From an uncultured bacterium (GTDB lineage: Bacteria > Desulfobacterota_D > UBA1144 > Nemesobacterales > UBA2774), in assembly GCA_963825135.1 (NCBI GenBank), contig CAWGRW010000009.1, positions 192,001 through 256,000 of the forward strand: a stretch of 64,000 bases of DNA, written 5' to 3'. The notes below the pieces were generated by a model, which did no database searches, had not been told where the DNA came from, and saw only the letters and a program-made list of their open reading frames with translations. Each line of letters opens with the position of its first letter. The first letter of the stretch is position 1. A program made the translations under genes and the position numbers. This document shows positions 1 to 38,136 of this stretch, one piece after another.

Positions 1-2
1 CG

Positions 3-227
3 AATGATCTGGCAAGAAGACTTCAGGAACACAAAGACAGCAGAATAGACGAAAACAGCTTCGCCGGAAAATACCACTGCTACAATCTTGTATACTGCGA
101 AATTTATGAAAACATAGAGGAAGCAATTAGACGTGAGAAAGAAATCAAGAAATGGAGAAGGGAGAAAAAGAACTGGTTAATCGAGAGTCAAAATCCAGAA
201 TGGAGATTTATGAACGGGGACATATAG
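3..227 (+). CDS. GIY-YIG nuclease family protein (UPF0213/YhbQ-like), 5'-truncated by window edge
   Basis: Own translation of frame 3: NDLARRLQEHK...FAGKYHCYNLVYCEIYENIEEAIRREKEIKKWRREKKNWLIESQNPEWRFM*. The NDLxRRxxEH and AIxREKxIKxWxRxxK...NPxW motifs are typical of small GIY-YIG proteins. Confidence 0.85.
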   Translation, partial: NDLARRLQEHKDSRIDENSFAGKYHCYNLVYCEIYENIEEAIRREKEIKKWRREKKNWLIESQNPEWRFMNGDI

Positions 228-232
228 ATCTT

Positions 233-314
233 TGTCATTTCGAGCGTATGTGAGAAATCTATTGTTTATCTATGTCATAGAGAAGACAGATTTCTCCCGC
301 TGGTCGAAATGACA
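233..314. repeat. REP-like paired palindromic repeat (TGTCATTTCGAGC..GAGAAATCT / AGATTTCTC..TCGAAATGACA)
   Basis: TGTCATTTCGA 233-243 is the reverse complement of TCGAAATGACA 304-314; GAGAAATCT 252-260 pairs with AGATTTCTC 288-296. A related left half is at 36481. Confidence 0.85.
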
Positions 315-18045: not shown

Positions 18046-18156
18046 TCCGCCACTTCGCTACCCCTATACCGCGACGAAGGCGGCGGAGTGGCGGAAACTG
18101 AGGGGAATATTAATGTACCCCCTCACCCTTTCCCTCTCCCACGCTGGGGAGAGGGG
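18046..18156. repeat. Composite repeat (copy 2)
   Basis: TCCGCCACTTCGCTA-CCCCTATACC..GGCGGAGTGGCGGAAACTGA..GGAATATTA..CCCTCACCCT..CCCTCTCCC..GGGGAGAGGG, collinear with 17272-17391. Confidence 0.8.
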
Positions 18157-18171
18157 ATTATGTGTGCTCGC

Positions 18172-22914: not shown

Positions 22915-23086
22915 GTGAGTTTATTCTATTTGCAAAGGGAGGAGTTGTCTAGACGCACACACGTAGTGTGGCTCTACGATTCTTCCGAAACTCCTCAGCT
23001 CAAACCGCCAATCATGGCGTTTTCGTACGTCAGCGGCGACACGCCGCCCCGTTCACCCCGAGCGCACACGCAGTGTGCTGTCGAAG

Positions 23087-23160
23087 AACAATTGCGAGCA
23101 AGTGAGCAATTGGACGCCCTGGCTCACAATGTACCAAAGCTAGTTAACTTGGCTGCCGCA
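23087..23160 (+). mobile_element. About 90-bp REP-inserted element, copy F (3' end truncated or diverged)
   Basis: AACAATTGC-GAGCAAGTGA-GCAATTG-GACG (perfect 7-bp stem); interior TAGTTAACTTGGCTG resembles copy A; abuts a ..GTCGAAG repeat. Confidence 0.6.
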
Positions 23161-23333
23161 GGATCATATCTTTTTGTCATTGCGAGCGGAGCGCAGCAAT
23201 CTCATCTTTTTCTTTCCTGTCATTCCCGAATGTCTTTATCGGGAATCCAGCCTTTTATTATTTTGATTCAAAATATGGATTCCCGCTCCCCTGGAAGTGA
23301 CAAAAATATTAATGTACCCCCTCACCCTACCTA

Positions 23334-23422
23334 ATTTGGCTCAGGCATCGACGAGCCTCATCTAAGCACCATGTCTAGCTTCGTCGTAAGAGCGACCAAT
23401 TCCTCGCCAACTCGGAATTGTT
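23334..23422 (-). mobile_element. About 90-bp REP-inserted element, copy C (89 bp)
   Basis: Minus strand AACAATTCC-GAGTTGGCGA-GGAATTG-GTCG...GAGCCAAAT; splits a CCCTCACCCT..TCCC..GGGGAGAGGG repeat that is intact at 18118-18156. Confidence 0.7.
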
Positions 23423-23509
23423 TCCCGCGCTGGGGAGAGGGAACTAAGAAGAAAAGAGAGATCGCCACGGCTGCATACGCAGCCTCGCGATGACAGAAAA
23501 AAAGAGTCA

Positions 23510-25211
23510 TCATTCCTCCGCCGCGGGCTCCAGCGTGGGCTGCGGCGTGGGCTGGGGATTGCCGGCGCCGGCGCAGAGCGTGACGACGTAATTTATATCG
23601 TCGCCCTGACAGGTAAAGAGCGCGTTCGCGAGCCCTATCACCTGGTTGCCGTCGTCGAAAGACCAGGCGTAAGCCCCCGCCTGACTCCCTCCCGTATTAT
23701 CGCCGCAAGCGGCGTGCACGTTCTCTATGTACTCAGTGGTATTTTTTGTTCCGCCGTCGTAGGTCGGCCACGCGGACGTCCTTCCCATGGTCGAGTCGCA
23801 CTGCCCGTACGGGTCGCACATGGTCGCCGGGAACTGGCAGCAGGGCGGCGTCGAATTATTCGTCGGCGGTATGTTCAAGTTCGTGCCGCACGTGGTAGAC
23901 GAGGTCATCGCGCAGCTGTTGGCATTATCACCGAAGCTGATCATGCACACGCCCCAGGCGTCGTTATTCGTCCAGGGGGTTTCGTCGTAGCCGCCGACGC
24001 AGCCGAGCCTGTTCATCTCGTCCGTAGTCAGGGAATCGAGCGGCGGAAGCCCTATCGATGACATATTGAACGGGGAGAGGCAGGTGCCGATATCCCCAGT
24101 CGAGGTTTGAACGAAGCCGCCTATGTTGCCCGGTGCCGACGGGCTGAAAACGTAGGTGTCCCACGGGCACGCGGGCAGCTCCGTACACCCGGACCCGGCG
24201 CTCCCGCAGCCGCTCTGACAGGGCGCGGTCTCGATCAGCACGTTGAAGCCGGCGACGAACGATACGTCGTAGTTATCGGCGCCCGTGCAGTTCGCCGGAA
24301 TCCCGCCGTCGAACGTAAACTCGGCCAGGGAAGCGGGCTTAGGCCCGTTTATCCCCCCGCAGTTCTCGACGCCCGTGGTGCCCCCGCAGTTTCCGGTCTC
24401 GCAGGTGAGGTCGCCGCTGTCGGAAGTACAGCCCGTCCGGGCTACGATGACCCCGGAATCCCAGCAAACGGGTATAGTCAGCTGCCTTACGCCGCCAAGC
24501 CCTGCCGGATCGTTGTCACTGGGCGGTATCTCCCAGGTGGCGCCGCCGTTGGTACCCCAGGGCGGAGGCCCTACCCAGGCGGCATTGTTCGTAATCGTGG
24601 GCGGACTCGTCGGCTGAGGGCCCGCCTGACCGCCCTCAGGGCCGCAGTTGCCTATCGAGGGCGAGCTGCCTGTACCGGCCTCGCAGAGGAGCGAGGTGAA
24701 GTCGATGCTCTCCGCACCTATCCATACGGACTGCGAGCATTGGTTCACAATGCTTATAGTGTGTGTCCCGGACGGTCCGGGCGAGGGGCACGGCAGAGGC
24801 GTCGGAGTTGGAGTGGGCGAAGGAGCAGGTGTTGGTGTGGGCGTGGGTACCGGAGTGGGTAGGCACAGGCGTCGGTTCGGACGTGGGTTCCGGGGTAGGC
24901 ACGGGAGTAGGCGCGGGCGTTGCGATCGCGCATGCCTCCGAGAAATCCGTATTACACTCTGAAGACGTCTCTATCGAGTCTACAGAGCCGCATTGGGCGG
25001 GAGAAGTCAGCGGGCAGCAGGCGGCCAGGCCGCCTTCAGCGCAAACCTCGCAGGCCGAATCCCCGCCCGTGAGGTCGCATGTCCGCAATTCAGTGTCGTC
25101 GTCATCACCGGAGCCGTCTCCCGGCGTTTCGCATCCGCCGATGTTTCCGAGGCCGATTAGAATGAATAGTGCGCATACGGCAAGAAATCGAATCCAGTTG
25201 TATCTTTTCAT
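23510..25211 (-). CDS. Lipoprotein with Cys-rich N domain, Pro/Thr linker and thaumatin-like (PR-5) domain; frameshift near 24857
   Basis: Signal ending IGGC; ISIVNQCSQSVWIG, SGVIVARTGC, CETGNCGG, PASLAEFTF, DNYDVSFVAGFNV, AYAWSFDD, FTC..YVVTLC match thaumatin family motifs. Confidence 0.85.
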
Positions 25212-25470
25212 CTCATCTCCTTTACTCCAAGCGCTGGAATTTCACAAACGCTAATATTTGAACTTTATTATTTCGTAAACATACGGCCGGAAACCGCCCG
25301 AAACAATATATTAAATATAAAAGACCGGGCGACGGGGCCCGGGAAGTACACACGCGGGCGGCATGGGGATGAGTAAATCAGAAGAATTTATTAAATGCGC
25401 ATTTCGTAGCATTACCAGTTAAACTATGCGATAGTTAAATTAAGAAAAAAATATACAGGAGACAAATAAC

Positions 25471-25908
25471 ATGAAATTGACCAGCCCCGACTTCGAGGAA
25501 GGAGGCATGATGCCGAGGGAGATGACCTACGACGGCGGGGACGTATCTCCGGAGCTCAATATAACGGAAGTGCCCGAGGGGACTAAGTCGCTCGCGCTCA
25601 TCATGGACGACCTCGACACCCCGAGGGGGACGTTTGTCCACTGGCTCGTATGGAACATACCCTCCGCGACCGGCAGGATAGAGCGCGGAAAGGAGCCTGT
25701 GGGCACTTTTGGCGTAATCGGCTTCGGAGGCAAGGGCTACAGAGGGCCCTGCCCCCCGTCAGGAACGCACAGATATTATTTCAAGTTCTACGCGCTCGAC
25801 GAAGAGCTCGGGCTGAAGGAAGGCTCCGTGAAGGAGGCGTTCGAAGAGGCGATGGAGGGCCATATAATCGACAAGGCCGAGCTTATGGGGAGATACAAGA
25901 GGAGCTGA
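25471..25908 (+). CDS. YbhB/YbcL family (PEBP/Raf kinase inhibitor-like) protein
   Basis: DVSPEL, SLALIMDD, FVHWLVWNIP, YRGPCPPSGTHRYYF. Confidence 0.92.
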   Translation: MKLTSPDFEEGGMMPREMTYDGGDVSPELNITEVPEGTKSLALIMDDLDTPRGTFVHWLVWNIPSATGRIERGKEPVGTFGVIGFGGKGYRGPCPPSGTHRYYFKFYALDEELGLKEGSVKEAFEEAMEGHIIDKAELMGRYKRS

Positions 25909-26013
25909 GCGCACAATGTGTGCTCATATACGATCCTGACAATGCTGCATCCACCTGTCGCTGCGAGCCGAAGCGCAGTAATCTCGTCTTGTTTATTCCT
26001 GTCATTCCCGAGC

Positions 26014-26103
26014 CACGGTTCTGAACGCGTGCAAGAGCCGGACGACCCCGGCTGATTGCAAATACGCTTCAATATCCCGGCACCTTAGCAACACAAGCCA
26101 AAA
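26014..26103 (+). mobile_element. About 90-bp REP-inserted element, copy E (90 bp)
   Basis: CACGGTTCT-GAACGCGTGCA-AGAGCCG-GACG...TGATTGCAAATA...AAGCCAAAA, in the loop of a GTCATTCCCGA..TCGGGAATC repeat (intact form at 23218-23250). Confidence 0.7.
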
Positions 26104-26151
26104 AGAATCGGGAATCTAGTGTTTTCCTTTTTCTTAAATCCACCCTACCCT

Positions 26152-26242
26152 ATTTGGACTTTAGCAACGCTCAGCCAGTAGTTAATCTAACTCGGTTTCG
26201 TAGTTGTCCCGGCGTCCGAATGCTCACACGTTCGCATCCGTT
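26152..26242 (-). mobile_element. About 90-bp REP-inserted element, copy A (91 bp)
   Basis: Minus strand AACGGATGC-GAACGTGTGA-GCATTCG-GACG...AAGTCCAAAT; splits AAATCCACCCTACCCT|CTTTACAAAGGAGGG. Confidence 0.7.
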
Positions 26243-26366
26243 CTTTACAAAGGAGGGAATTAAAGGCAGAATCCGTTCGCCCCGAGCCTATTGCAGGATG
26301 ATGCTTAGTCGATCATTTTAATCATTGGATTAGCCGAATATAAACAGCCGGCAGGTTAAATCTCTC

Positions 26367-26939
26367 TCACATCACTGCGTATCTCTTTTCCTCTTTCCCG
26401 AGAGCCTTCTCTATCTTGCGCTTCAGCAGCTCGCGCTTGAGACGCGTGAGCCTGTCTATGAAGAGCACCCCGTCCAGGTGGTCTATTTCGTGCTGGAACA
26501 CGCGGGCGAGCAGGTCCTCGGCCTCGATCTCGAGGAGCTTCCCATCCCTGTTGTAGCCTTCGAGCACGATTTTGTATTTCCGCTTCACGTCGCTCACGAA
26601 CCCGGGGATGCTCAGGCACCCCTCCTCTCCCACGATCTCGCCTTCAGACGAAATAATCTCGGGGTTAATGAGCTCTATCAGCCCGGGCCCGTCGTATTCA
26701 GGCCCGCCGTCCCCCTCTTCGTCATCGTCCCCTTCCGTCTTTCTCGGAGATATATCGACCACGATTATCCTGCTTTCGACCCCCACCTGGGGCGCGGCCA
26801 GCCCCACGCCCGGGGCCTTGTACATGGTCTCGGCCATATCGTCGAGAAGCTCCAGCACATCGCCGTCGATCTCTTCGACCGGGGCGCATTTCTTTCTCAA
26901 ATACGGGTCGGGGTATATAAGTATTTTACGGAGTGCCAT
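26367..26939 (-). CDS. def: Peptide deformylase
   Basis: GVGLAAPQVG, EGCLSIPG, QHEIDHLDG. Confidence 0.97.
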   Translation of the reverse strand: MALRKILIYPDPYLRKKCAPVEEIDGDVLELLDDMAETMYKAPGVGLAAPQVGVESRIIVVDISPRKTEGDDDEEGDGGPEYDGPGLIELINPEIISSEGEIVGEEGCLSIPGFVSDVKRKYKIVLEGYNRDGKLLEIEAEDLLARVFQHEIDHLDGVLFIDRLTRLKRELLKRKIEKALGKEEKRYAVM

Positions 26940-27069
26940 AAAAAAAAGGCTATCGGATCAGACCTGATTGTCAATGTGGCGGTTATGCGCGGAAGCAGGG
27001 TAACGGAATATGAATACCGTCCCTATGTACGCCATGAATTCCGCCGCCCGGGGCCGGGCGGGCCTGATG

Positions 27070-27354
27070 CTACTCGTTTCCGCCGTTGAGCTTGGTGATT
27101 AACTCTCTGCTCGGCCTGAAATGAGGGAGCTTCTTCGAGGACACCGTGACCTTGGAGCCGGTCCTCGGGTTCCTCCCCTCGTAGGACCCGTAGCTCTTGG
27201 TGAAAAAGCTGCCGAACCCCCTGATTTCTATCCTGCCGCCGCCCTCAAGGACCTGGGTCATGTGCTCGATCACCGTATCGAGTATCTGCTCGGATTGCGA
27301 GGGCTGAAGATTGAATTTGTCCGCCAATTCCTTTTCTATATCTGAGCGCTTCAT
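27070..27354 (-). CDS. ihfB: Integration host factor beta / HU family protein
   Basis: RIEIRGFGSF, GRNPRTG, PHFRPSREL. Confidence 0.85.
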   Translation of the reverse strand: MKRSDIEKELADKFNLQPSQSEQILDTVIEHMTQVLEGGGRIEIRGFGSFFTKSYGSYEGRNPRTGSKVTVSSKKLPHFRPSRELITKLNGGNE

Positions 27355-27524
27355 AGTTAAACTCCCAACCTTTTTAGTCCGCCGTAACGCCCGCCCCTTA
27401 CCCACTCTTCCAATTTAGATAATTCTTAAGTGTTTGTCAAGTGTTAGATTGCCCGGGAATTAAATTAGTTTCGGTCCCCGGTTTTCCGGCCGCAGCCCTC
27501 CTTTTCCGCTTCCCGGCCAATGAA

Positions 27525-28943
27525 TCAAGCCTTTATCTTCTTTTTCGCCCCGCCCGAGGCCCTCGCTTCCCTGCCTCCGGATTTTTCCCCGACGCTCCCC
27601 CGCGCCTCCGGGTGGTCGCTCAGGAATTTGTTCAGGTGCATTTCGGAGTATGACCCCTTCGGATAGTACTTGTCGTAGAACTCCACGTCTATGTTCATCG
27701 CCTGGAAAACGAGCCTCATGTACATGGGATCGACGAACGCCGGGAACCTCCCGTAGGTGTCGTATATATAATTCGCTACGTCCTTAACGATCTGAATCGT
27801 GTTCTTCGTGGGCTTGGGCGCCCTCATTAAATGTTTATCGGGCTCCGTGTAGGGAAACGGCTTCTCGGGCTTCCAGGCGTCTTCCTTATGGTGATGGAAC
27901 GCGTCTATGGCCTCGTCCATATTCTTGTAGTAAGGCGGGCAGTAGGCTTCGAATATACCGTCCCTTCCGACCGGAACCGTGGACGGGGGGTCTATCACTC
28001 CCTTCTTCGGCTGTACGAACCTGAACCCGAGCCCCTTGAACAATTGAGGAGCCCCTCCCATGGCGAACCTCGGTATGAAGCCGCTGAACGTCCAGCCGGC
28101 AAGACCGAGCGCCTGGAGCGCCAGGCTCATGTTCTGGCATATGAAGGCCTGCTCCACGTTTAGCCCCGTGAGTATCCTCACTTCGAGGTCGAAGAGCGAC
28201 ATCTTGACGCCGTCCTTGAGCCTCCCCTTGTCTATCCACTTCTGCACTCCCGCGGGCTTGCCCGTGAGGTCGTCTATGATCGTGAAACCGTATGTGGAGC
28301 TGCAGTAGAGGTGGAGGAGGTTCAGGTACTCCTCGGTGACGTCCGTCACCGGGATAAAGACCGAAGTCCCCGGTTTGTTCGTATTCCACTGGTTGAATTC
28401 GAACAGGCCCGGCATGCGGTCGGGGAGCTCCGCCCTCCCGTCCTCCAGCTTCACGAGGCTCTCGCGGTACAGCTCCAAAATCCTTTCCATTCTCTCTTCG
28501 CGGCCCATGCGGAAAAACATGTCGAGCTCGTGGTTCTTCGGGAGCATGTGCTTTACGTTCACATGGTAGAGCCCCTTGTCGTTCGTGAAAAATAGCTCCG
28601 TCCCGTGGTTGTTGCACGCCGAGGGCCATGTGCGCCCCGTCCACTGGCAGAGGAGGTCGATACCCGTTTCAGGAGGGAGGTCGGCCAGGCAGAGGCCCGT
28701 GAGACCGGTGCCGGACCACACTAAAAGCGCCTCTTCCATCTCCTCGAGGGGAACCGGGTCGTAACGGGATTCGAAACCGAGCGACGTGTCCTCGAGCTTC
28801 ATGCCGAGGCCGAAACGGCGCGAGCGCCTGTTGAATATCGAGTCGAAAAGCGGGTAGTTAAGCGCCTGCTCGTACCTTTCGCCGAGAGCGAACTTTCCGT
28901 TCCCCTTCCCGTTGTTGCCTCTGCTGTTTCCGCCTTTAGCCAT
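27525..28943 (-). CDS. Hypothetical protein, possible nitroreductase-superfamily fold
   Basis: NRRSRRF, GRTWPSACN and QNMSLALQALGLAGW resemble nitroreductase FMN-binding segments; AAGGAGG RBS. Confidence 0.6.
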   Translation of the reverse strand: MAKGGNSRGNNGKGNGKFALGERYEQALNYPLFDSIFNRRSRRFGLGMKLEDTSLGFESRYDPVPLEEMEEALLVWSGTGLTGLCLADLPPETGIDLLCQWTGRTWPSACNNHGTELFFTNDKGLYHVNVKHMLPKNHELDMFFRMGREERMERILELYRESLVKLEDGRAELPDRMPGLFEFNQWNTNKPGTSVFIPVTDVTEEYLNLLHLYCSSTYGFTIIDDLTGKPAGVQKWIDKGRLKDGVKMSLFDLEVRILTGLNVEQAFICQNMSLALQALGLAGWTFSGFIPRFAMGGAPQLFKGLGFRFVQPKKGVIDPPSTVPVGRDGIFEAYCPPYYKNMDEAIDAFHHHKEDAWKPEKPFPYTEPDKHLMRAPKPTKNTIQIVKDVANYIYDTYGRFPAFVDPMYMRLVFQAMNIDVEFYDKYYPKGSYSEMHLNKFLSDHPEARGSVGEKSGGREARASGGAKKKIKA

Positions 28944-29175
28944 AGTAGTCCTCCTTATTAATTAAACAAACATGAATTGATAATGGGACGATTGCCCCCC
29001 CTACCTAGAGAATTTAAAATAACTCGACGGAAAATGCAAGGAATTCGGAGGATACGCGATACTCAGGGGCGCAAAACGATTTCAAGCCCTATCTTGAGTA
29101 ACGAAATGTAGAATTTATATATTGTAGCGGGAATACGACGTTAACACCGGCCCCGGCGAGGAAAAAAGAGGCCCG

Positions 29176-30036
29176 CTATATGGACTGCCCGTGCAGGAGC
29201 TCTCTTTGAGACGGCTTTGTCGCGCCCCCGTCGGGCTCGACCGTGACCAGGAACCTCTCTACGTCGCCGTATTTCTTAAGCGATTCCACCTTCACGACGC
29301 TGTTGCCCTCGCTGTCCACGTCGAAAACGCCTACGCTCTTCGGGACCCCGTGCACGATTACCCACCACTGGTAGGTTTTGCCGGGAGGCGCATCGGGTAG
29401 GTGGAGGCAATAAAGAAGCGCGTCGTTCTCCTCCTTGTCCCAGAGCACCCTTCCTGCCGCCCGGACCTCCGGTCTCGACTTCTTCATCCGTATGAGGACT
29501 ATCTCGGGGTCCTTCATGAATTCGGTTATGTCCTCGATGCTTGCGAGCTTGGCCTTTAGGCCCCCCACCATCCCCTCCCTGTCTGTGAGCAGGTTCTTCA
29601 GGGATTTTATCTCTTCCTCCTGCCCAGAGACCTTGGCGTTAAGGATCCCGACCATCGCTTTCTCCCGGCGGAGATTCCCTCTGAGCGAGAGGTCGTTCAC
29701 GAACAGGAAAACAATGACGCCCGCCGCGAGCGCCCCGCCTAGCCCGAAAAAGTAGGGCCTCAGCCTTTCCATGAAGCCGCCCGTCTGCACGGGTCTCCGC
29801 CTGAGCGCGCTTTTCCTCGCGTACTCGAGTATCTCGCTCCTGACGCGGGGACCGGGCGAAGCGGCGCCACTCGAATAAGAGAGCAGGGACGCCGCGTTCT
29901 CGTATTCATTAAGGAGCTCCTTCGCCTGCGGCGGGCCCTCGCTTATAAGGCGCTCCGCCTCGCGCAGCTCCTCTCCCTCGAGCACGCCTAACGCGTAGAG
30001 TGGGATCAATTCTTCGAGTCTCCGGTCATCCGCCAT
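29176..30036 (-). CDS. Anti-sigma factor, RskA-like
   Basis: LYALGVL N terminus, single TM, coiled coil, C-terminal PPGKTYQWW...SVGVF...VTVEPDGG. Confidence 0.88.
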   Translation of the reverse strand: MADDRRLEELIPLYALGVLEGEELREAERLISEGPPQAKELLNEYENAASLLSYSSGAASPGPRVRSEILEYARKSALRRRPVQTGGFMERLRPYFFGLGGALAAGVIVFLFVNDLSLRGNLRREKAMVGILNAKVSGQEEEIKSLKNLLTDREGMVGGLKAKLASIEDITEFMKDPEIVLIRMKKSRPEVRAAGRVLWDKEENDALLYCLHLPDAPPGKTYQWWVIVHGVPKSVGVFDVDSEGNSVVKVESLKKYGDVERFLVTVEPDGGATKPSQRELLHGQSI

Positions 30037-30336
30037 AAAATAATGGGTCTCACTATCGAGCTTGCGGGATTTATCGTCAATCTAATATAAATTAAGACGC
30101 CGCACAAATAAATATACGGAGATAAACGATATTCGGTTTAATCGACCGTATGTATATTATAACCGCTTAAAACAGGAGGGAAGAAGGTCGTCGCCCCCAC
30201 CCCGGCGCCGACCGGGCGGAGACAAATACGACGCGGCTATATATTTAAACGGGATGTATATTTATTATGTTATATTCTTGTAACCGAATTACACGAATCG
30301 GAATTTGTCTTAGTCAAACAAGGAAGATAGAGACGG

Positions 30337-30921
30337 ATGACAATGCCTTCGGCTGAGACCAGACGTATACCTGAAATCGAGCGTGAGCTGAGAGAGCTCA
30401 TAAGCAAGATCTCGCGCGGATGCGAGTCGGCGCTCGGGAAGCTCTACGACAGGATGATATCCCAGGTCTACGGGCTCGCGCTCAAGATTCTCCGCAGCAA
30501 CTCCGAAGCGGACGAGGTAACTATAGACGTATTCAAGCAGATATGGGATAAGGCCTCGGGCTATACGCCCGACCGCGGAAGCCCGTCGGCGTGGCTGATT
30601 ACGCTTACGAGGAGCCGCGCGATAGACAAGCTCCGGTCGGACACGAAGAGGAGGAGCTTACAGGATCCGCTCCACGACGACATCCCCTCGAATATAGACC
30701 CCCCTGATGAGACCACAGAGACGAGGCAGAAGCGCGCGCTCATCGATAAGGCCCTCTCGGAGCTCCCCCCCAAGCAGAGGGAATCCATAGAGCTCGCCTA
30801 CTTTCACGGGCTCACTCAGACGGAGATATCCGCCCGTATGAACGAGCCGCTCGGCACCGTTAAGAGCTGGATGCGGGCCGGGATGACGAGGCTCCGCGAG
30901 ATCATAGGCGCCGGGTACTAA
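30337..30921 (+). CDS. ECF RNA polymerase sigma factor (SigK-like)
   Basis: LYDR, AWLITLTRSRAIDKLR, LAYFHGLTQTEIS, PLGTVKSWMRAG. Confidence 0.93.
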   Translation: MTMPSAETRRIPEIERELRELISKISRGCESALGKLYDRMISQVYGLALKILRSNSEADEVTIDVFKQIWDKASGYTPDRGSPSAWLITLTRSRAIDKLRSDTKRRSLQDPLHDDIPSNIDPPDETTETRQKRALIDKALSELPPKQRESIELAYFHGLTQTEISARMNEPLGTVKSWMRAGMTRLREIIGAGY

Positions 30922-30936
30922 TCCGCCGCCCCGGTC

Positions 30937-31276
30937 CTAAAGCGGCAGGCCGAGCTTTCCGCCAAGCGCCGCGTATCCGAGAAAAAGCACCACCATCACC
31001 CCGAGGACGCCGCCATAGACAGCCGGAAATTGCAGCCGTGCCGGAGCATCCGCGGCAGGATGAGAAAGAAGAGAAGCGTGGGCAGCACGAAGCGGCCGAG
31101 AGGTCGGCGATCCGTCCCGCGTCCCTGGTATCGGCATAGAGCCATGCCACTGCGAGGAGAGATGTCAGCGGAAGGGCCGCCAGCATGGCGGCGAAAGCCG
31201 TGTGCCTCTTGCCGAGCTCCGACACGCCCGCGATCACGAGCGCCGTTAATACGGTCTTAACAATGAAATATATCAT
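30937..31276 (-). pseudogene. DUF3147-family membrane protein, frameshifted or small deletion near 31090
   Basis: VIAGVSELGKR, AALPLTSLL, WLY; the C terminus continues in another frame. Confidence 0.65.
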
Positions 31277-31418
31277 CTCCCGCTCCTTCCCAGCCGATAT
31301 AATTGATATTAAACTACTCCCTGTCCGTTATGCCTGGAATAATCGGTACAGCCGGGTTTGGAAACTATATACTTTTCCGGCTCTGTTTGAACGGGCATGA
31401 ACAGTCGGAGGAAAGAAC

Positions 31419-32384
31419 TTGAAAATCACTTCTTATATCATTGGCGACGACCTGCACCTCGAAGAAGAAACCTCAGTCACCTCTTTCTCGGAAAGGATAA
31501 AAGACGGCAGGCCCAGATGGGTCGACATCGTAGGCCCGGCAGACGACGAGCTGAGGAGCGTGCTCACGCCCCTCGTCCACGACGATTCATTGATCGAGAA
31601 TTTTATATTGATGGAGCGGAACCTCCCCGTAGCGCATTCGGAAAAAGAGCTCTACTTCGAATTCCCCCTAATCAGGGACACGGCCTCGTTCGATCTCGAA
31701 AACGTATCCTTCCTCTGCATGCCTCATCTCCTTATCACGATCCACGACGAGGAGATCGAAGTACTGAACAAGCTTTCCCAGGACCTGTGCAAACACCTCC
31801 ATCTGCAGAGGGCCACGATTGCTTCCCTCCTGTTCAACCTGATGGCCGAGCTCGTGGAGAAAAACTACTATCTCTACAGGGACCAGAGGGAGGAGATCAC
31901 GAAGATAAGCAACAAGGTAATAATGGGAGAGGACTCGATCGACGTCAGGACCATTCTTCATCTGAAGAAGAATATCGGGCGCGTGAATATCATGGTCGAG
32001 GACCAGCTCTACTGCATCAACACCATACAGGTATACGAAGGGGTGGCTTTCGATATCGGCAAGCAGCGGAGGAATTTCAACTACCTCGAGGACGAGGTGC
32101 GTAACGGCTTCAGGTTCCTGAGCAGGTACGAGAACAGGCTCGAGGACATACACAAACACTATGAGCTCATGCTCCAGGAGAGGACGAACAACAGGCTCAA
32201 GGTGCTGACCATAGTGGCGGCCGTATTCCTGCCCCTTAACCTCGTGGCCGGCATCTACGGTATGAACTTCGAGAATATACCGACTCTCAAATGGGAATTC
32301 GGGTACCACGCCGCGCTCGGTTTCATGCTGTTAGTGGCGGTCTCGATGGTTTATTACTTCTACCGCCGCGGCTGGTTCAAGTGA
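31419..32384 (+). CDS. corA: CorA-family divalent cation transporter
   Basis: LKVLTI..FLPLNLVAGIYGMNF signature, two C-terminal TMs, RRGWF. Confidence 0.9.
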   Translation: MKITSYIIGDDLHLEEETSVTSFSERIKDGRPRWVDIVGPADDELRSVLTPLVHDDSLIENFILMERNLPVAHSEKELYFEFPLIRDTASFDLENVSFLCMPHLLITIHDEEIEVLNKLSQDLCKHLHLQRATIASLLFNLMAELVEKNYYLYRDQREEITKISNKVIMGEDSIDVRTILHLKKNIGRVNIMVEDQLYCINTIQVYEGVAFDIGKQRRNFNYLEDEVRNGFRFLSRYENRLEDIHKHYELMLQERTNNRLKVLTIVAAVFLPLNLVAGIYGMNFENIPTLKWEFGYHAALGFMLLVAVSMVYYFYRRGWFK

Positions 32385-32548
32385 CCGGCTCTCGCCGGGC
32401 TAGTTCAATTTCTCCCGGGCGGTGACCGCGCGGAAGAGTTAGCCCGGAACCCTCGTCTGAATACTAAAATCCTCCTCCGCCCGATCCTGATGTAAAATAT
32501 AGGTCAGCCAGGATGGAAATTGTCAAAGAGAGCACAAAGGCGGCAGCA

Positions 32549-34795
32549 ATGAATTTCGAGCGAATGTTACTCTCCACGACCGTATTAATCCCCCTCGCGA
32601 TCACCGCGGTCATATCGGCCGCGCTCCTGTTCTTCCCGCTGGCCGGGGCTCTCGGCTTCGAGTACTCGGCCGTCATGGGGTTCGTCCTCTCCTTCATATC
32701 CGTATTCGTATCGGCGGAGCTCATGGGCGGCGAATACAAGTCCCACTCGTCGGGGAAGAGGCTCTCGGACAGGGTATCGTCCATACTCCTCGTCTGCTCC
32801 TTCTTCCTGGTCCTCGTGTACCTGATCGGGCTCCTGGGCTCGCTCCTCAAGGGGGACTGCTACATACGGGAGGGGACGGTATTCTTCCTCCTGATCCCGG
32901 TCGTGAGCGTATTCTTCTCGTCCTCCCTCGGGCTCCTGACCGGGTATATCCTGCGCGGCAGGGGTTTCATCGCCGGGGCCCTGATACTGATCGGGATATT
33001 CGCGTATTCTCTCTGGGAGCTCTACAGCGAGCCCTCGCTCTTCGTCTATAACCCGCTCTACGGATTCTTCCCCGGCCCCATCTACGACGAGGCGATACCG
33101 GTCACGGACACGCTCATCGTCTACAGGCTCATGACCGCGCTCTGGGGGCTGCTCTTCCTCGCGCTCCTTCAGCTCGCCAACGGCCTCGGATACAGGAGGG
33201 TCGGCCTCTGGGATTTCGTGAAGGTCTCGGTCGTCGGTATAGCGCTCATCGTCGCGTACTCCCACGAGCACGAGTCGGGCGTCAGCTACGACAGGGCGTA
33301 CATAACCGGCGAAATCCTCCCCGCGTCCGTGGAAACGGACCACTTCATAATTTACTACGACCCGTCCTCACCCGACGCGAAGCGTATAAACCTCATCGCC
33401 GGGGACCACGAATGGAGGTACAGGGAGTTAAGCGAATTCCTCGATCTCAATCCCGGCCCCGGGTCCATGGAGAAAATCCGCTCCTACGTCTATCCCGATA
33501 CCGATACGCGGAAGAGGGTCGTCGGCGCGGGAGATACCACCATTGCGAACCCGATACACAAGGAGATACACCTCGTTTACGATACGTTTCCCCAGCCCGT
33601 GCTCAAGCACGAGCTCACCCACGTCATGGCGGGGGACTTCGGGACGAAGATACTCCGCATGAGCCCCAAGATCGGGCTCCTCGAAGGACTCGCCGTGGCC
33701 GCCGACTGGAGCGGCGACGGCTACGACCCGCACCAATGGTCAAAAGCGATCATCCACAACGGCCAGGCCCCCGACATCGCGGACATAACGGGTTTCGGGT
33801 TCTGGTACGCGCCCCCGGCCCTGAGCTACACCCTCATGGGCTCTTTCTCGAGGTATCTCATCGACACCTACGGCATAGAGAAATTCAAGACCGTTTACAG
33901 GACGGGCGATTTTTCAGTCTACGGCAAGGGCCTCCCGGAGCTCGTCTCGGACTGGAAAAAGTTTCTCGACGGAGTGGACGCCCCCGCCGAGATAAACGCG
34001 CTCGCGAAAGCCAGGTTCGGCGCGCCCAGCATCTTCACGGCCTCGTGCCCGAGAAGGGTCGCCGCTCTAAAAGCGGAGGGGTTTAAATATTACGGGGACG
34101 ACAATTTCTGGAAGGCGAGAGAGAGATTCAAAGAAGCGCTCCGGTACGACGGCCGGGACCCGGTGCTGCTGAACGGGCTCGCGTATTCGAACTACTACGA
34201 GGGCGACTACGGCGAGGCCGAGAAAATAGCGGAGACGCCGGGCGCGCTCACGGAGGCCGACAGGGCGGTGCTCGGGAACCTCAGGGGGAACGCCCTCTGG
34301 CAGTCGGGCGACACGAAAGCGGCGGCCGGGATTTTCAGCTCCTTACGGCCGGGCCCCCTGCCCGACGACCTCAAGAGGGAGATAGACATAAAGCTCTCGG
34401 CCATAGGGACGGGCGGCACGCCTGAAGGGAGCGTAAGCGAGTTCTTCTCGACGAGGGACAGGACGCTTCAGGCCGCATCCCTCTCGGAATCGATACTGAA
34501 TTCTCCCGAATACTCACCGCCCTACTATCTCATGGGGAGGCTATTCTTCAACACCGGTGATTATCAAAGGGCGATACCCTATCTGTCCATGGCGGACTAT
34601 CTGGGCCTCCCTTCGGCCGAGCTCACGCAAGAGAACCTGCGCATACTCGGCATTTCCCTCTTCGCAGCCGGCAGGTACGACGAATCGGCCGCCGTGTGGA
34701 GCCGCCTCGCCTCCGGGGACGACCCGGAGCTCAGGGAATACGCGTCCGACTTCCTTCGCAGGATCGAGTGGGGCAGGAACAACCTGTTGAAGTAA
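32549..34795 (+). CDS. Multi-pass membrane protein with HExxH metallopeptidase-like domain and C-terminal TPRs
   Basis: Several N-terminal TMs; LKHELTH followed by LLEGLAVA; TPR-like helices. Start may be 32513. Confidence 0.7.
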   Translation: MNFERMLLSTTVLIPLAITAVISAALLFFPLAGALGFEYSAVMGFVLSFISVFVSAELMGGEYKSHSSGKRLSDRVSSILLVCSFFLVLVYLIGLLGSLLKGDCYIREGTVFFLLIPVVSVFFSSSLGLLTGYILRGRGFIAGALILIGIFAYSLWELYSEPSLFVYNPLYGFFPGPIYDEAIPVTDTLIVYRLMTALWGLLFLALLQLANGLGYRRVGLWDFVKVSVVGIALIVAYSHEHESGVSYDRAYITGEILPASVETDHFIIYYDPSSPDAKRINLIAGDHEWRYRELSEFLDLNPGPGSMEKIRSYVYPDTDTRKRVVGAGDTTIANPIHKEIHLVYDTFPQPVLKHELTHVMAGDFGTKILRMSPKIGLLEGLAVAADWSGDGYDPHQWSKAIIHNGQAPDIADITGFGFWYAPPALSYTLMGSFSRYLIDTYGIEKFKTVYRTGDFSVYGKGLPELVSDWKKFLDGVDAPAEINALAKARFGAPSIFTASCPRRVAALKAEGFKYYGDDNFWKARERFKEALRYDGRDPVLLNGLAYSNYYEGDYGEAEKIAETPGALTEADRAVLGNLRGNALWQSGDTKAAAGIFSSLRPGPLPDDLKREIDIKLSAIGTGGTPEGSVSEFFSTRDRTLQAASLSESILNSPEYSPPYYLMGRLFFNTGDYQRAIPYLSMADYLGLPSAELTQENLRILGISLFAAGRYDESAAVWSRLASGDDPELREYASDFLRRIEWGRNNLLK

Positions 34796-34828
34796 TCGTT
34801 TAATCCTATATAATCTTAGCTTCCGAAA

Positions 34829-35314
34829 ATGGACAGATACAGAAAAGCCGCGGTCATCACAGTACTCGTAGTCGTAATCGACCAGTTGTCCAAGTGGCTC
34901 GTGATCAAGTACGTGCCGCTCTACGGCAGGGTGAACCTGCTCCCGTTCCTCGACGTGACCCACATCAGGAACCCCGGGGCCGCGTTCGGCATCTTCCGGG
35001 AAATGCCCGAGTCGCTCAGGCTCCCGTTATTCATAGTCGTGCTCCTGGCCGCCGTCGTGGTCATCATATACTTCCTCTCGAAGACCGGGAAGCAGGACAG
35101 GCTCCTCGTCTTCTCTCTATCCCTCATACTAGGCGGGGCGATAGGAAATTCCATAGACAGGTTCAGGCTCCGCTACGTTACGGACTTCATAGACTTCCAC
35201 TGGTTCGGCAACCCCGCGCTCCACTGGCCGCCGTTTAACCTCTCGGATTCGGCCATTACCATCGGCGTCATACTGATACTTTTCGACACATTCATCCTTA
35301 AACGGGGCAGATAG
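34829..35314 (+). CDS. lspA: Lipoprotein signal peptidase II
   Basis: DQLSK, NPGAAFG, GGAIGNSIDR, VTDFI, WPPFNLSD. Confidence 0.96.
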   Translation: MDRYRKAAVITVLVVVIDQLSKWLVIKYVPLYGRVNLLPFLDVTHIRNPGAAFGIFREMPESLRLPLFIVVLLAAVVVIIYFLSKTGKQDRLLVFSLSLILGGAIGNSIDRFRLRYVTDFIDFHWFGNPALHWPPFNLSDSAITIGVILILFDTFILKRGR

Positions 35315-35316
35315 AC

Positions 35317-35928
35317 ATGTTCACGGGGATAGTAGAGGACACAGGGACTGTCACGGCGATTAAACGCCGCTCCAGGGAATCCTCTTTCACTTTCAGCGTA
35401 GGCAGGATCGACTTAAATGAGGTATCAGCGGGGGAGAGTATATCCGTAAACGGCGTGTGCCTCACCGTTACCTCGCTCGAAGGCGATACGTTCACGGCCG
35501 ACGCGTCGCGCGAGACCCTTTCGAGGACCGGCCTCGGGAAGCTCAGGGTCGGCGGCAGGGTGAACCTCGAGCGCTCTCTTCGGGCCGGGGACAGGATGGG
35601 CGGGCACATCGTGAGCGGGCACGTGGACGGGGTTGGCAAGGTCAAATCGAAAAAGAAGCGGGGAACGTCCGTGGAATTCAGGTTCGCGGCCCCGGACGGG
35701 ATCATGAAATATATCGTCGAGAAAGGCTCGGTCGCCATAGACGGCGTGAGCCTCACCGTAAACGCGGTCGAGGGCGGGGAATTCACCGTGAACATCATCC
35801 CCTACACGCTCTCGGAAACCACGTTCGGAGCGCTCAGGACCGGGAATACGGTCAACATAGAGTGCGATATAATAGGGAAATACGTCGAGAGGTTCACGAC
35901 GGGCGCAAGAGACATAGAGACGGGCTAA
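35317..35928 (+). CDS. ribE: Riboflavin synthase (alpha)
   Basis: MFTGIVE, NGVCLTV, VNLER, GGHIVSGHVD, DGVSLTVN. Confidence 0.96.
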   Translation: MFTGIVEDTGTVTAIKRRSRESSFTFSVGRIDLNEVSAGESISVNGVCLTVTSLEGDTFTADASRETLSRTGLGKLRVGGRVNLERSLRAGDRMGGHIVSGHVDGVGKVKSKKKRGTSVEFRFAAPDGIMKYIVEKGSVAIDGVSLTVNAVEGGEFTVNIIPYTLSETTFGALRTGNTVNIECDIIGKYVERFTTGARDIETG

Positions 35929-35938
35929 AGATCATCAG

Positions 35939-36464
35939 ATGACTCCTCCGCGGAAAAAACCGAAGAACATATTCCTCGTCGGCTTCATGGGAGCGGGCAA
36001 GACCACCATCGGCAGGATACTCGCCCGGACGCTCGGGTACAGGTACTGCGATTCCGACAAGGTGATAGAAACGAAAGCGGGGAAGACGGTCTCCGAAATA
36101 TTCTCGAGCCTAGGGAGAGTCTCGTTTCAGAGAGCTTGAATCGGAGACGCTCAATTCGCTCGCCGGGAAGGAAAAACAGGTGATAGCCACGGGCGGCGGC
36201 GCTGTGATGAGGGAGGAGAACCGGGAGGCGATGAAAAAGGGCGGGGTCACGGTCTATCTTAAAGCCCCCGTGAGCGTTATCTGGGAAAGGATCAGACTCA
36301 GCAAGACGCGTCCCCTGCTGAACGTGGACAATCCGCTCGAGGCCGCGGAAGAGCTCCTTCAAAAGCGCGCCCCTTTCTATGAATCCGCCGATATAACTAT
36401 CGATACGGAGAGCCTCACGCCCGAAGAAGCGGCTTCTGAGGTCATAAAGAAGCTCGGGATTTGA
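35939..36464 (+). CDS. aroK: Shikimate kinase, frameshifted near 36110-36125
   Basis: GFMGAGKTT in one frame; FRELE..VIATGGGAV..TRPLL..RAPFY in the next. Confidence 0.92.
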
Positions 36465-36480
36465 AAGGAAAGCTTTATAC

Positions 36481-37080
36481 TGTCATTTCGAGCAACAGTT
36501 GCAAGCGCGCGCGCAACCGGTCGTTGCTGGTTGATTGCAAATAACCTGAATCGACATGCGTATATAATCCGCGTAAACCAAAACGAGAAATCAATCTTTT
36601 ATCTTTGCTTTTGTTTTCTCCCGACATTACAGAATTTGCGTCAAGAAAATCGGATTGTACGAGTCGTTAAGAACTCTTACGCTAGGGACTCGGTCGGGAG
36701 TCCGAACGATTCAGCGAGCACAGTCGAGCATGTTAGCGACAATTACTGTAGAATTTGCGGATGAACATCGCGTGTTTAGCATCAAGGAAAAGAATTGAAA
36801 GATTTTAGCTTAAACACAAGATTTTTAGCGTAATTCTGTAGTCTTTTCGGAAACCACACTACGATTTTTGCTTCTTTTATCCAGGAAAAGAAGGATAATA
36901 TCACCTTCACCACTATCTTTTCTGTCTTTGCATAAACCACTATCGGTGCACGGAAGTTTTCATAATCCACACTTCGTGTGTTCATCAAGGAAAAGAAATA
37001 AATAACATTAGTTAGGTACCGCCCTCACCTTCACCCACAAAGCGGGGAGAGGGAATGACATACAGTGAGAGATCGTCACG
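36481..37080. repeat. Intergenic repeat mosaic homologous to 2424-2890
   Basis: 28-bp identity TTTTCTCCCGACATTACAGAATTTGCGT (36614-36641 = 2538-2565); AATT(A)CTGTAG right arms near 36741 and 36832; ATC(A/C)AGGAAAAGAA units near 36781, 36879 and 36984. Confidence 0.8.
36494..36583 (+). mobile_element. About 90-bp REP-inserted element, copy D (90 bp)
   Basis: AACAGTTGC-AAGCGCGCGC-GCAACCG-GTCG...TGATTGCAAATA...AAACCAAAA between TGTCATTTCGAGC and CGAGAAATC (intact form at 233-260). Confidence 0.7.
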
Positions 37081-37132
37081 CTGTGCGCCCCGCTTTGCCC
37101 TTCCTCGAAAAATTGATTAAGATAGTTGGGCC

Positions 37133-37822
37133 ATGCAGATGCGTTCCCCGAAACAGGCTCCCAGGAAGAAGAGAAGCTACGGGCTCGGCTCCGAGGAATG
37201 GATTGACATAACGGTGCCCCTGTCGGACGGCATGGTGCACTGGCCCGGAGACCCTCCGGTGAAGGTGTTCCGCGTCCGGGACATGGGAAAGGGGGACGAT
37301 TTCAACATGTCCGCCCTCTCCATGTCGGTGCACACGGCGACGCATCTCGACGCCCCTTCTCATTTCACGAAGCTCAAGACCGGGATAGACAAGATGCCCC
37401 TTTCGGCTGTCGTCGGCAACGCCCGCGTAATCGAGATCGCGGATAACGACTTTATAACCGCCGACGAGCTCCGCGCGCACCGCTTGAGAAAAGGGGAGCG
37501 CCTGCTTTTCAAGACCCGGAACTCGAAAAGGAAATGGGACAAGAAGCCCTTCGACCAGAATTTCGTACACCTCTCGACCGACGCCGCGAAATACCTTGTG
37601 GAGCGCCAGGTACAGACCATAGGGGTCGATTACCTGTCGATAGGGGGATACGAGGGGAACGTCAGCGAGGTCCATCACATAATACTCGCCGCCCGCATAT
37701 GGGTCATCGAGGGACTTGACCTCTCGCAGGTCGAGCCCGGGGATTACGAGATGATCTGCCTGCCGATAAAAATCGAGGATTGCGAAGGCGCCCCCGCCCG
37801 TGCATTGCTGAGGCCGGTTTAA
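37133..37822 (+). CDS. Cyclase family protein (kynurenine formamidase KynB-like)
   Basis: WPGDP, HTATHLDAPSHF, IGVDYLSI, IEGLDL, GAPARA. Confidence 0.88.
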   Translation: MQMRSPKQAPRKKRSYGLGSEEWIDITVPLSDGMVHWPGDPPVKVFRVRDMGKGDDFNMSALSMSVHTATHLDAPSHFTKLKTGIDKMPLSAVVGNARVIEIADNDFITADELRAHRLRKGERLLFKTRNSKRKWDKKPFDQNFVHLSTDAAKYLVERQVQTIGVDYLSIGGYEGNVSEVHHIILAARIWVIEGLDLSQVEPGDYEMICLPIKIEDCEGAPARALLRPV

Positions 37823-37879
37823 GAATTGAGCGCACTTAGTGTGATATTGCGAACCGTACTCCGGCCCGGTTCATGATTC

Positions 37880-38136
37880 ACTGCAATTCTCGCGAAAGCG
37901 GGAATCAATTCTTTAAATCAACAACGACGAAAAGACAGATTCTCGAACATGCGGGAATGACAAAATTATAAATCCTCCCTAACCATTTGGACTTCAGAAG
38001 GATGGAGCTGGAAGTTAAGTTACTTCTGTGCTATTTAAGAGGGCCTTGGCAGGCTCGCCCGTTCGCAACCAAACTTTTACTAAGGCGGGAATCAACAGTA
38101 TTTTCCCCCTTTGGAAAAGGGGAATTAACGGGAATT
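37880..38136. repeat. Intergenic REP mosaic
   Basis: TTCTCGCGAAAGCGGGAATC..GATTCTCG..CGGGAATGACA followed by AAATCCTCCCTAACC..AAGGCGGGA and TTCCCCCTTTGGAAAAGGGGAA. Confidence 0.75.
37985..38073 (-). mobile_element. About 90-bp REP-inserted element, copy B (89 bp)
   Basis: Plus strand starts ATTTGGACTT and ends CGTTCGCAACCAAA, collinear with copy A (30 of the first 50 nt identical, ungapped); same host repeat family as A. Confidence 0.7.

Follow-up and report, generated by a model that had tools for sequence, protein, structure and literature searches.

A family of ~90-nt non-coding units in the hairpin loops of an uncultured bacterium and its relatives: a possible shape-targeted insertion element

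Small palindromic repeats fill many bacterial genomes and, to our knowledge, the spread of most of them is unexplained. The locus considered here raises this question in a particular form: how does one and the same non-coding unit of ~90 nt come to lie inside palindromic repeats of several different kinds? The window (the whole 64,000-nt stretch analyzed, from contig CAWGRW010000009.1 of an uncultured bacterium, assembly GCA_963825135.1) contains six copies of this unit, designated A to F (Table 1). An earlier note, made from the sequence of the window alone, had read it as a non-autonomous, structure-targeted mini-element and compared it with elements mobilized by HUH or IS110-family enzymes. 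The unit represents a family with a defined structure and an assigned folding strand; its members are located in hairpin loops, are nested in one another, occupy sites that also occur empty, and are found in host genomes and a phage. The reading kept as the best, and given about an even chance of being correct, is that of a lineage-specific, non-autonomous insertion element that probably moves as single-stranded DNA and has hairpin loops as its targets; the analogies to known mobilizing enzymes are not supported.

A covariance model (R1) was built from the five full copies, A to E, and used to search the window's own genome (G000; 3.13 Mb, 94% complete; other G numbers denote relatives, C numbers contigs). 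At E ≤ 10 it yielded 135 matches; 88 of these had E ≤ 0.003, and nearly all of the 88 were full length (85–91 nt), a number that greatly exceeds chance expectation. Within the window, R1 recovered exactly the six copies, at the coordinates and on the strands that had been read in the sequence before. A looser scan with a motif of the 5′ module added ~20 further short copies with other bodies or 3′ ends. Copy F, previously regarded as truncated, is rather a variant of ~83–88 nt with a different 3′ end and has relatives elsewhere. Rfam contained no match to the 64-kb window at gathering thresholds and, at E ≤ 10, only two chance-level matches (E 2.6 and 7.6) to positions 22900–26400, in agreement with the earlier note, in which the unit could not be matched to a named family. 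Likewise, no description of the family was found in the literature on Dadabacteria repeats, insertion into REP loops, nested repeats, and NIME, as far as covered here (mostly outside subscription journals, and main texts without supplements).

Read on the strand of copy E, the unit consists of AA, a 7-bp stem, a loop of 10–11 nt (GA(G/A)C..G(C/T)GA), the return stem, and GG(A/T)CGCC, followed by a homologous body of ~50 nt and, in most copies, CCAAA(A/T). Among 41 distinct copies, 96.8% of the cells of the 5′ stem were paired, versus 78.0% in column shuffles, and 59 cells were changed on both sides, versus 19.4 in shuffles; none of 500 shuffles reached either value. When the partner columns were slid by one to three positions, pairing dropped to 12–47%. 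G·U and U·G cells amounted to 23 on the E strand versus 6 on the complement (MAFFT alignment of 71 copies), which identifies the E strand as the folding strand. The loop contains a further covarying pair (G-C in 37, A-U in 17, and G-U in 8 of the 71 copies), flanked by G·A and A·G. The hairpin is a stem clamped by tandem G·A pairs, with one further base pair and a 4-nt tip. Wobble pairs cannot distinguish RNA from single-stranded DNA, and consensus folding of the same 71 copies supported no second helix on either strand. The interior, formerly described as ~50 bp of divergent sequence, aligns across the copies and contains conserved blocks (G.TGAT.GCAA..AAG....TTAACT). Borne out, on the other hand, were the subterminal hairpin, the asymmetric ends, the lack of a terminal inverted repeat, the near-fixed length, the high copy number, and the non-coding nature of the unit. 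With the ends AAC… and …CCAAAW, neither terminal inverted repeats nor a duplication of fixed length, as sought for a classical miniature inverted-repeat transposable element, were present; nor is the unit an integron attC site (RYYYAAC/GTTRRRY), as AAC is present, its GTT partner is absent, and the unit overall is no palindrome.

Table 1. Positions of the copies, their host hairpins, and associated genes (in the window, unless a contig of G000 is named).
Feature	Position	Strand	Remarks
Copy A	26152..26242	minus	91 nt, within C/G-rich palindromic repeat; R1 81.4 bits
Copy B	37985..38073	minus	89 nt, degenerate 5′ hairpin (TTTGG start); R1 65.8 bits
Copy C	23334..23422	minus	89 nt, within CCCTCTCCCC...GGGTGAGGGGG repeat; R1 71.0 bits
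Copy D	36494..36583	plus	90 nt, apex of GTC-tagged hairpin, between GTCATTTCGAGC and CGAGAAATC; R1 74.5 bits
Copy E	26014..26103	plus	90 nt, apex of hairpin, between GTCATTCCCGAG and AGAATCGGGAATC; R1 70.2 bits
Copy F	23087..23169	plus	5′ module common to family, variant body and 3′ end, behind ...GCTGTCGAAG; R1 32.4 bits
5′ arm, host hairpin of E	26001..26013	plus	GTC tag and ATTCCCGA; 3′ arm 26104–26116
5′ arm, host hairpin of D	36482..36493	plus	3′ arm 36584–36592
Uninterrupted GTC-tagged hairpin GTCATTTCGAGCGTATGTGAGAAATC (D-type host)	234..259 (about 233–260)	plus	Inverted partner at 288–313
Uninterrupted GTC-tagged hairpin GTCATTCCCGAATGTCTTTATCGGGAATC (E-type host)	23218..23250	plus	
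Uninterrupted C/G-rich repeat (C-type host, paralogue)	about 18110..18160	minus	
Ssn-type GIY-YIG gene, 3′ part	1..227	plus	98 aa, PF01541 56.5 bits; starts 71 bases before window (ATG at L016 1489)
IPTL-CTERM gene ending inside copy	C9:13702-13790		Translated
IPTL-CTERM gene ending inside copy	C9:666987-667075		By eye
IPTL-CTERM gene ending inside copy	C10:148275-148363		By eye
IPTL-CTERM gene ending inside copy	C9:2208293-2208381		By eye

The flanks of the 88 copies confirmed that the unit lies inside palindromic repeats of several families, and the uninterrupted forms of three hosts were indeed present in the window (Table 1). A crude regular expression, applied to 87 of the 88 copies printed with their flanks, assigned 38 to C/G-rich palindromic repeats, 24 to hairpins with a 5′ GTCA(T/C) tag, 7 to the loop of another copy's own hairpin, 4 to a tRNA 3′ end, and 3 to the stem-loop of a widely repeated 5′ leader. 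By eye, the remaining 11 comprise more nested and tRNA-linked copies, copies behind ...GTCGAAG (like F), and three copies that lie in coding sequence, at the tails of IPTL-CTERM genes. The copies are located at or near hairpin loops, and in every copy printed the orientation relative to the host hairpin was the same. When copies are nested, the outer one looks intact and is interrupted in its own loop. Uninterrupted GTC-tagged hairpins carry a GA-clamped top like that of the element (GTC-ATTTC-GAGCAGCGCGA-GAAAT-C); in hosts of this type, the element takes the place of the tip (GAGC-unit-CGA). At least 10 unrelated host contexts share the same 5′ end of the unit, an AAC that begins two bases ahead of its hairpin. 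A conserved target tetra- or pentanucleotide was not found; the 5′ flanks end in many different words. At least six consecutive pairs could be formed between the flanks of 67% of the copies versus 32% of 2000 random 90-nt windows, a test too permissive to be relied on, and location in palindromes was therefore judged from the host classes. The direction of neighboring genes had no influence (25 copies same, 18 opposite). On C10, plus-strand copies were in excess (19 to 4), following the orientation of genes and repeats. Nearly all copies and repeats lie in C9 2.2–2.79 Mb, C10, and C9 0–0.43 Mb, and together these stretches resemble a single large region of variable genes that is rich in repeats; the cumulative GC skew of C9 is lowest near 1.26 Mb and highest near 2.24 Mb, leaving very unequal arms.

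That no copy resides in a gene, as the earlier note put it, holds within the window; genome-wide, the final codons and the stop codon of IPTL-CTERM genes are contributed by copies of the unit in at least four cases (Table 1), one of these copies scoring below the E cut-off of the 88-copy set. There, a hairpin made of TTCTTC and AGAAGA (Phe and Arg codons) is split by the element, whose own hairpin is read as a basic C-terminal tail and which supplies the last residues plus the stop codon (..AVRRLRASKQSDAVG, then stop). Since the hairpin is translated as ..RRLRASKQSDAVG followed by a stop, insertion into coding DNA is tolerated. IPTL-CTERM genes are also among those behind a second type of repeat, the 18-mer GACATTACAGAATTTGCG, of which the genome contains 133 copies, 78 of them on the 224-kb contig C10 (example in the window at about 36620–36700). 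Approximately 25 nt after it, a conserved stem-loop follows in 76–78 copies (tacgagcgttaaRaatctt...ggaagatttagcgagtacatg). This region appears to be one shared promoter or 5′ leader before more than 100 different genes, which also include those for S13 peptidases and collagen-repeat proteins; the copy in the window had no match in Rfam. Near copy C, an open reading frame of 412 aa (23510–24748, minus) encodes a domain of the thaumatin family (PF00314, E 5e-18), an unusual feature for bacteria.

Sites with and without the unit could be compared within the genome and between relatives. For 11 copies, paralogous unit-free sites with similar flanks were found. One of these pairs represents a clean insertion, between GGGGGA and TTAAGGGGG; in others, 2–8 target bases are lost or replaced, and none of the pairs shows a duplication. 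The claim that the unit makes no target-site duplication was thus confirmed by filled and empty pairs at dispersed sites (tRNA-linked copies excepted, see below), as was the loss of a few host bases at the junctions (0–8 removed or replaced). At one related intergenic site, the C/G-rich repeat is filled in G000, the same module is present as an uninterrupted repeat in G008 and G005, and G004 and G002 have 91 nt without the repeat. At another, a filled GTC-tagged hairpin is common to G000 and G003 and missing from G009, G004, G002, and G007, and G008 holds a different filled hairpin; between G000 and G003, the 5′ module is identical at 31 of 33 positions and the body at ~80%, about the regional level (by eye). 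In the spacer containing E and A, the place of E in G000 is taken in G007 by an uninterrupted hairpin (GTCATTCCCGAGAAATCGGGAATC); the spacer of G006 is free of repeats, and that of G004 contains two other copies, in different hairpins. Related intergenic regions turn over fast. Contigs from public sequencing runs (Logan) break at the repeats and therefore revealed neither empty alleles nor circles nor RNA ends, the best holder containing 36% of the words; in one metagenome contig, at a depth of 3.9, positions 23086 and 23175, on either side of F, are joined by 15 letters that differ from the window, which is weak evidence.

When 41 related genomes were searched with R1 (E ≤ 0.001), all nine of the same genus matched (10–105 matches each), as did 4 of 4, 1 of 1, 3 of 3, and 1 of 5 genomes of other genera of the family. 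Only 1 of 16 genomes from other families of the order gave a match, single and weak, and 21 of the 41 had none. Within the family, the element is present in 18 of 24 genomes. When a strict pattern was run against prokaryotes, with each species represented by one genome, at least 125 loci were hit; among the matches listed, 46 had a well-formed stem and the other 79 look like chance. Nearly all well-formed matches with visible titles are labeled Candidatus Dadabacteria or belong to multi-copy metagenome-assembled genomes (MAGs) labeled Spirochaetia, Thermodesulfobacteriota, or delta proteobacterium. The match in a Terriglobia MAG (L044), a 6-of-7 hit, lies in G+C-rich DNA without the family body, and looks like chance. 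In IMG/VR, two records contained many copies. One of them (G045; L194, L195) is a 29.8-kb phage fragment with genes for tail tube, tail terminator, and large terminase; it carries 12 copies, all on one strand and opposite to the structural genes, in the same two kinds of repeat as in the host.

R1 also matches tandem hairpin units of ~88 nt behind the genes for tRNA-Arg and tRNA-Glu, on the strand antisense to the tRNA, and for this reason these arrays belong to the same family. In the direction of the tRNA, a unit consists of the body, GGCG(A/T)CC, the hairpin, GTT, and a 9–15-nt copy of the tRNA 3′ end, which begins inside the 3′ strand of the T stem. Tandem arrays with such copies lie behind tRNA-Glu, Arg(cct), and Arg(acg); Arg(tct) is followed by a single unit with a repeated 3′ end. 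At the tRNA-Glu locus, one to three units or remnants are present in all eight genus genomes that could be read (seven besides G000), and the one-unit loci (G008 and G003) look like an insert of 75 nt with the tRNA end directly repeated (14 nt) on its two sides. This flanking repeat may have come from staggered cutting of a folded tRNA gene or, alternatively, from selection of those events that preserve the tRNA. A palindrome, cacacaatgtgtg (in the window at about 25905–25925 and 22950–23085), recurs after genes and directly after the last tRNA-end copy of the arrays, and is the sole repeat remaining in the shortest related spacers.

Insertion into the tops of hairpins is proposed because the 5′ end is constant, the length is fixed, at least 10 host contexts have only their shape in common, copies are nested, a single orientation is used, empty sites exist, and a phage carries the unit. 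According to this proposal, the unit would move as single-stranded DNA and land in the single-stranded top of a hairpin, replacing or splitting the host loop, in an orientation set by the host hairpin, without target duplication and usually with removal or replacement of 0–8 target bases. Any suitable hairpin could serve as target, be it of the GTC-tagged Ssn type, a C/G-rich palindrome, the element's own hairpin, the stem of the 5′ leader, or the hairpin of Phe and Arg codons in IPTL-CTERM genes. A trans-acting enzyme presumably recognizes the hairpin of the unit and sets the 5′ end two bases upstream of it. After insertion, most copies were probably multiplied by recombination together with the host repeat modules, and behind tRNA genes the same element would have built the tandem arrays.

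As to the enzyme, the earlier note's statement that the window contains no mobilizing transposase overlooked the 3′ end of an Ssn-type GIY-YIG nuclease gene (Table 1), which is a candidate partner and not an established mobilizer. It is a single-domain gene, the only GIY-YIG match in the genome, and lies between inverted pairs of GTC-tagged hairpins, the type that hosts D and E. The gene and its two inverted hairpin pairs are bracketed by a 35-bp direct repeat (ggtatataccccgcccgtctgtcccattgtccca, second copy at about 380–415), and the entire cassette of ~700 bp looks like an insertion. Ssn nucleases cut single strands, and their genes are arranged as NTS-ssnA-NTS with hairpins termed NTS/SRM, according to PMC11893778. 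Because the layout of gene and hairpins matches these published systems, the GTC-tagged hosts are regarded as Ssn-type hairpins. The combination of GTC tag, palindrome, and trailing C on the folding strand was found for the hosts of D and E and for about 230 copies of nine GTCAY 10-mers, of which about 6 each would be expected. The element's own hairpin has AA...G in place of a GTC tag and trailing C on this strand. The published degenerate SRM pattern matched the genome 16 times, versus 18–30 times in shuffled genomes; it misses the hairpins here because their loops exceed the length it permits. Of the 24 family genomes, 16 contain Ssn homologues, relatives share the layout, and six genomes from other families of the order have Ssn matches without the element. 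By our own tally, 15 genomes of the family have both, 3 only the element, 1 only Ssn, and 5 neither, which is no test of a connection as the genomes are kin. Between the unit and the ssn gene or its ends, no similarity was detected, the only match being a neighboring copy in G007. Ssn is thus a lead, a candidate partner of the GTC-tagged host hairpins. We know of no demonstration that an Ssn nuclease moves DNA. A bolder version, which we consider improbable, is a new class of mobile DNA: a single-stranded unit of ~90 nt, read only via its GA-clamped 5′ hairpin and pasted into the unpaired loop of any extruded hairpin by an enzyme of host or phage outside the known transposase families, for which the Ssn-type GIY-YIG nuclease plus a ligase or the replication machinery would be a candidate. 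If true, this process would explain both tRNA-linked repeat arrays and NIME-like mosaics, which have long been unexplained.

Several observations weigh against an insertion element. The mobilizing enzyme was not identified among the candidates examined: Y1_Tnp (PF01797), IS110 DEDD (PF01548), and reverse transcriptase (RVT_1, PF00078) each had 0 matches in the 94%-complete G000, and the former two are sporadic in the family (3 and 5 of 26 genomes, respectively). Longer copies with the same ends enclosing a gene, which the earlier note proposed to look for, were absent among the ~110 genome copies and the 46 well-formed matches elsewhere. The 3′ boundary is fuzzy; CCAAAW, formerly ascribed to all full copies, is present in most and missing from some copies and subfamilies. 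On C9, no replication-strand bias was observed. The tRNA-linked copies carry their 9–15-nt flanking repeat, unlike all other copies. Four element-free relatives also lack the expansion of host hairpins, and the distribution can therefore not separate the element from its hosts. Moreover, the sequence on either side of most copies itself belongs to repeated modules, and independent insertions must therefore be far fewer than copies. An insertion or deletion of the unit alone was not found in 14 aligned pairs of strain-variant contigs (a 251-bp block differs between C1 and C10); between C11 (filled) and C10 (empty), the difference comprises the insert together with the entire host repeat. Finally, chimeric copies, in which the same 5′ module and 5′ host are joined to another body and 3′ host, indicate recombination within the element, at the conserved GG(A/T)CGCC. 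Repeated flanks, one module both filled and empty, an allele pair that swaps the whole repeat, and chimeras joining different hosts would all fit a non-transposing building block of mosaic repeat arrays, comparable to the RS segments of NIMEs and spread by gene conversion, unequal crossing-over, or template switching, an explanation considered rather unlikely. Its events could start from Ssn-type single-strand breaks beside the hairpins, and the presence of the ssn gene with flanking hairpins, its coincidence with the element among the (kindred) family genomes, small target deletions or substitutions instead of duplications, and whole repeat blocks present or absent between species are in line with it. 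However, with an AAC 5′ end that is constant even in coding DNA, the leader stem, and the element's own loop, switching driven by microhomology is not expected; the length is held at 85–91 nt, the six genomes of other families have Ssn and no element, and the cut made by SsnA lies outside the loop, a few bases upstream of the hairpin (PMC11893778).

A functional structured RNA or protein-binding site (small RNA, processing signal, or terminator module) whose mobility is secondary is judged very unlikely, despite the strong covariation of the stem, the conserved loop, the strand-specific wobble pairs, the conserved body blocks, the better conservation of the hairpin module than of the body at the site shared by G000 and G003, and the persistence of the tRNA-Glu arrays in all eight readable genomes: neither the window at gathering scores nor the 3.5 kb searched at E ≤ 10 had a convincing Rfam match, orientation is independent of neighboring genes, the strand that folds is the sense strand in the 5′ leaders but the antisense one in the tRNA arrays, related intergenic sites turn over rapidly, and copies reside in coding tails and in one another. 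Members of the IS3 family have TG...CA inverted repeats and produce 3–4-bp target duplications, and one of them, IS1397, reportedly targets the loops of repeats. In G000, an IS3-family insertion sequence (HTH_21 plus rve) is multi-copy (C9 about 306.9 kb, 278–280 kb, and 2621 kb, and contig C8). In G004, an IS110 (L167, G004:C15, 869–2190) shares a C/G-rich repeat with an element copy, being inserted 8 nt beyond the 3′ end of that copy, and its 5′ untranslated region holds aatcctcccttag, which is complementary to the repeat arm, as would be expected of the target loop of a guide (bridge) RNA. These findings, the fact that elements targeting palindromic repeats exist (PMC12288879), and a genome that is 94% complete, with repeats often unassembled, speak for a miniature derivative of a known family (IS110 solo module, IS200/IS605, or IS3 family like IS1397) whose enzyme was lost or not assembled. 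We nevertheless give it a low probability, as AAC.../...CCAAAW are not the ends of the G004 IS110 (by eye), the inverted repeats and duplication of the IS3 family are absent, the unit has one hairpin and no conserved target word, and the IS110 and Y1_Tnp genes are sporadic, whereas the element occurs in 18 of 24 genomes. Against an IS110 solo module stand the absence of IS110 from G000 and the different ends of the IS110 in the relative; against an IS200/IS605 miniature, with which the lack of duplication is shared, stand the single 5′ stem, the lack of a target word, and the absence of a Y1 gene from G000. Neither analogy of the earlier note is supported. An assembly or basecalling artefact at hairpins, finally, has a negligible probability, and nothing was found in its favor. 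The copies cannot be such an artefact because independently assembled genomes of 19 other relatives, further public MAGs, and a phage record all contain the family, in diverged form and with compensatory changes.

One well-defined family thus combines a precise 5′ end set by a covarying hairpin, location in unrelated loops including its own, presence in host and phage, and membership in tRNA-linked arrays. It offers a testable system for DNA movement guided by shape and not by sequence, in a genome that also carries the recently described pair of Ssn nuclease and hairpin, and it suggests how tRNA-linked repeats, and the intergenic mosaics near genes for variable surface proteins, may have originated. 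Were its enzyme found, a tool that inserts DNA at single-stranded hairpins would be of practical interest.

Known systems each resemble part of this picture and depart from it in defining features. In E. coli, tRNA-linked repeats form tandem units behind tRNA genes, and the arrays described here resemble them in that each unit ends in a copy of the tRNA 3′ end; unlike there, the unit belongs to a dispersed family of more than 100 copies, which suggests that the arrays arose by repeated insertion. The SDR repeats of Nostoc and the mitochondrial double-hairpin elements are 21–60 nt long, nested in themselves and in other repeats, and show compensatory changes in their hairpins. Small size, compensatory changes, and nesting are shared by the present unit, which differs from them, by this description, in its length of ~90 nt, its long homologous body, its occurrence in another phylum, and its presence in a phage. 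IS200/IS605 elements and REP/REPIN sequences with RAYT rely on HUH Y1 transposases, depend on hairpins, are strand-specific, and have neither inverted terminal repeats nor target duplications. The same dependence on a hairpin, strand specificity, and lack of terminal repeats and duplication are found here, with single-stranded DNA as the likely substrate; in contrast, the unit has one hairpin and not two, no target tetra- or pentanucleotide, insertion into loops, and no Y1 gene in G000. IS110-family elements reside in REPs, and the ssr9 module of ISPpu9 is a selfish one (PMC12288879). Like ssr9, the present unit is a small non-coding module, inserted in palindromic repeats in a specific orientation, that relies on a function encoded elsewhere, whereas G000 has no IS110 gene, the ends are others, and the many target sequences have a shape in common and not one sequence read by a guide RNA. 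The dRS3/NIME arrays of neisseriae (PMC1797815) are similar as an intergenic mosaic of hairpins and repeat segments of 50–150 bp near genes for variable surface proteins; NIME segments, however, lie between whole hairpins, and the present unit splits a single one. On the side of the targets, the Ssn systems offer a parallel (PMC11893778): about a quarter of the copies reside in tGTC-palindrome-C hairpins like NTS/SRM (for instance CGTCATTCCCGCG..GCGGGAATC), and, as in the NTS-ssnA-NTS layout, the 98-aa GIY-YIG gene is flanked by GTC-tagged hairpins.

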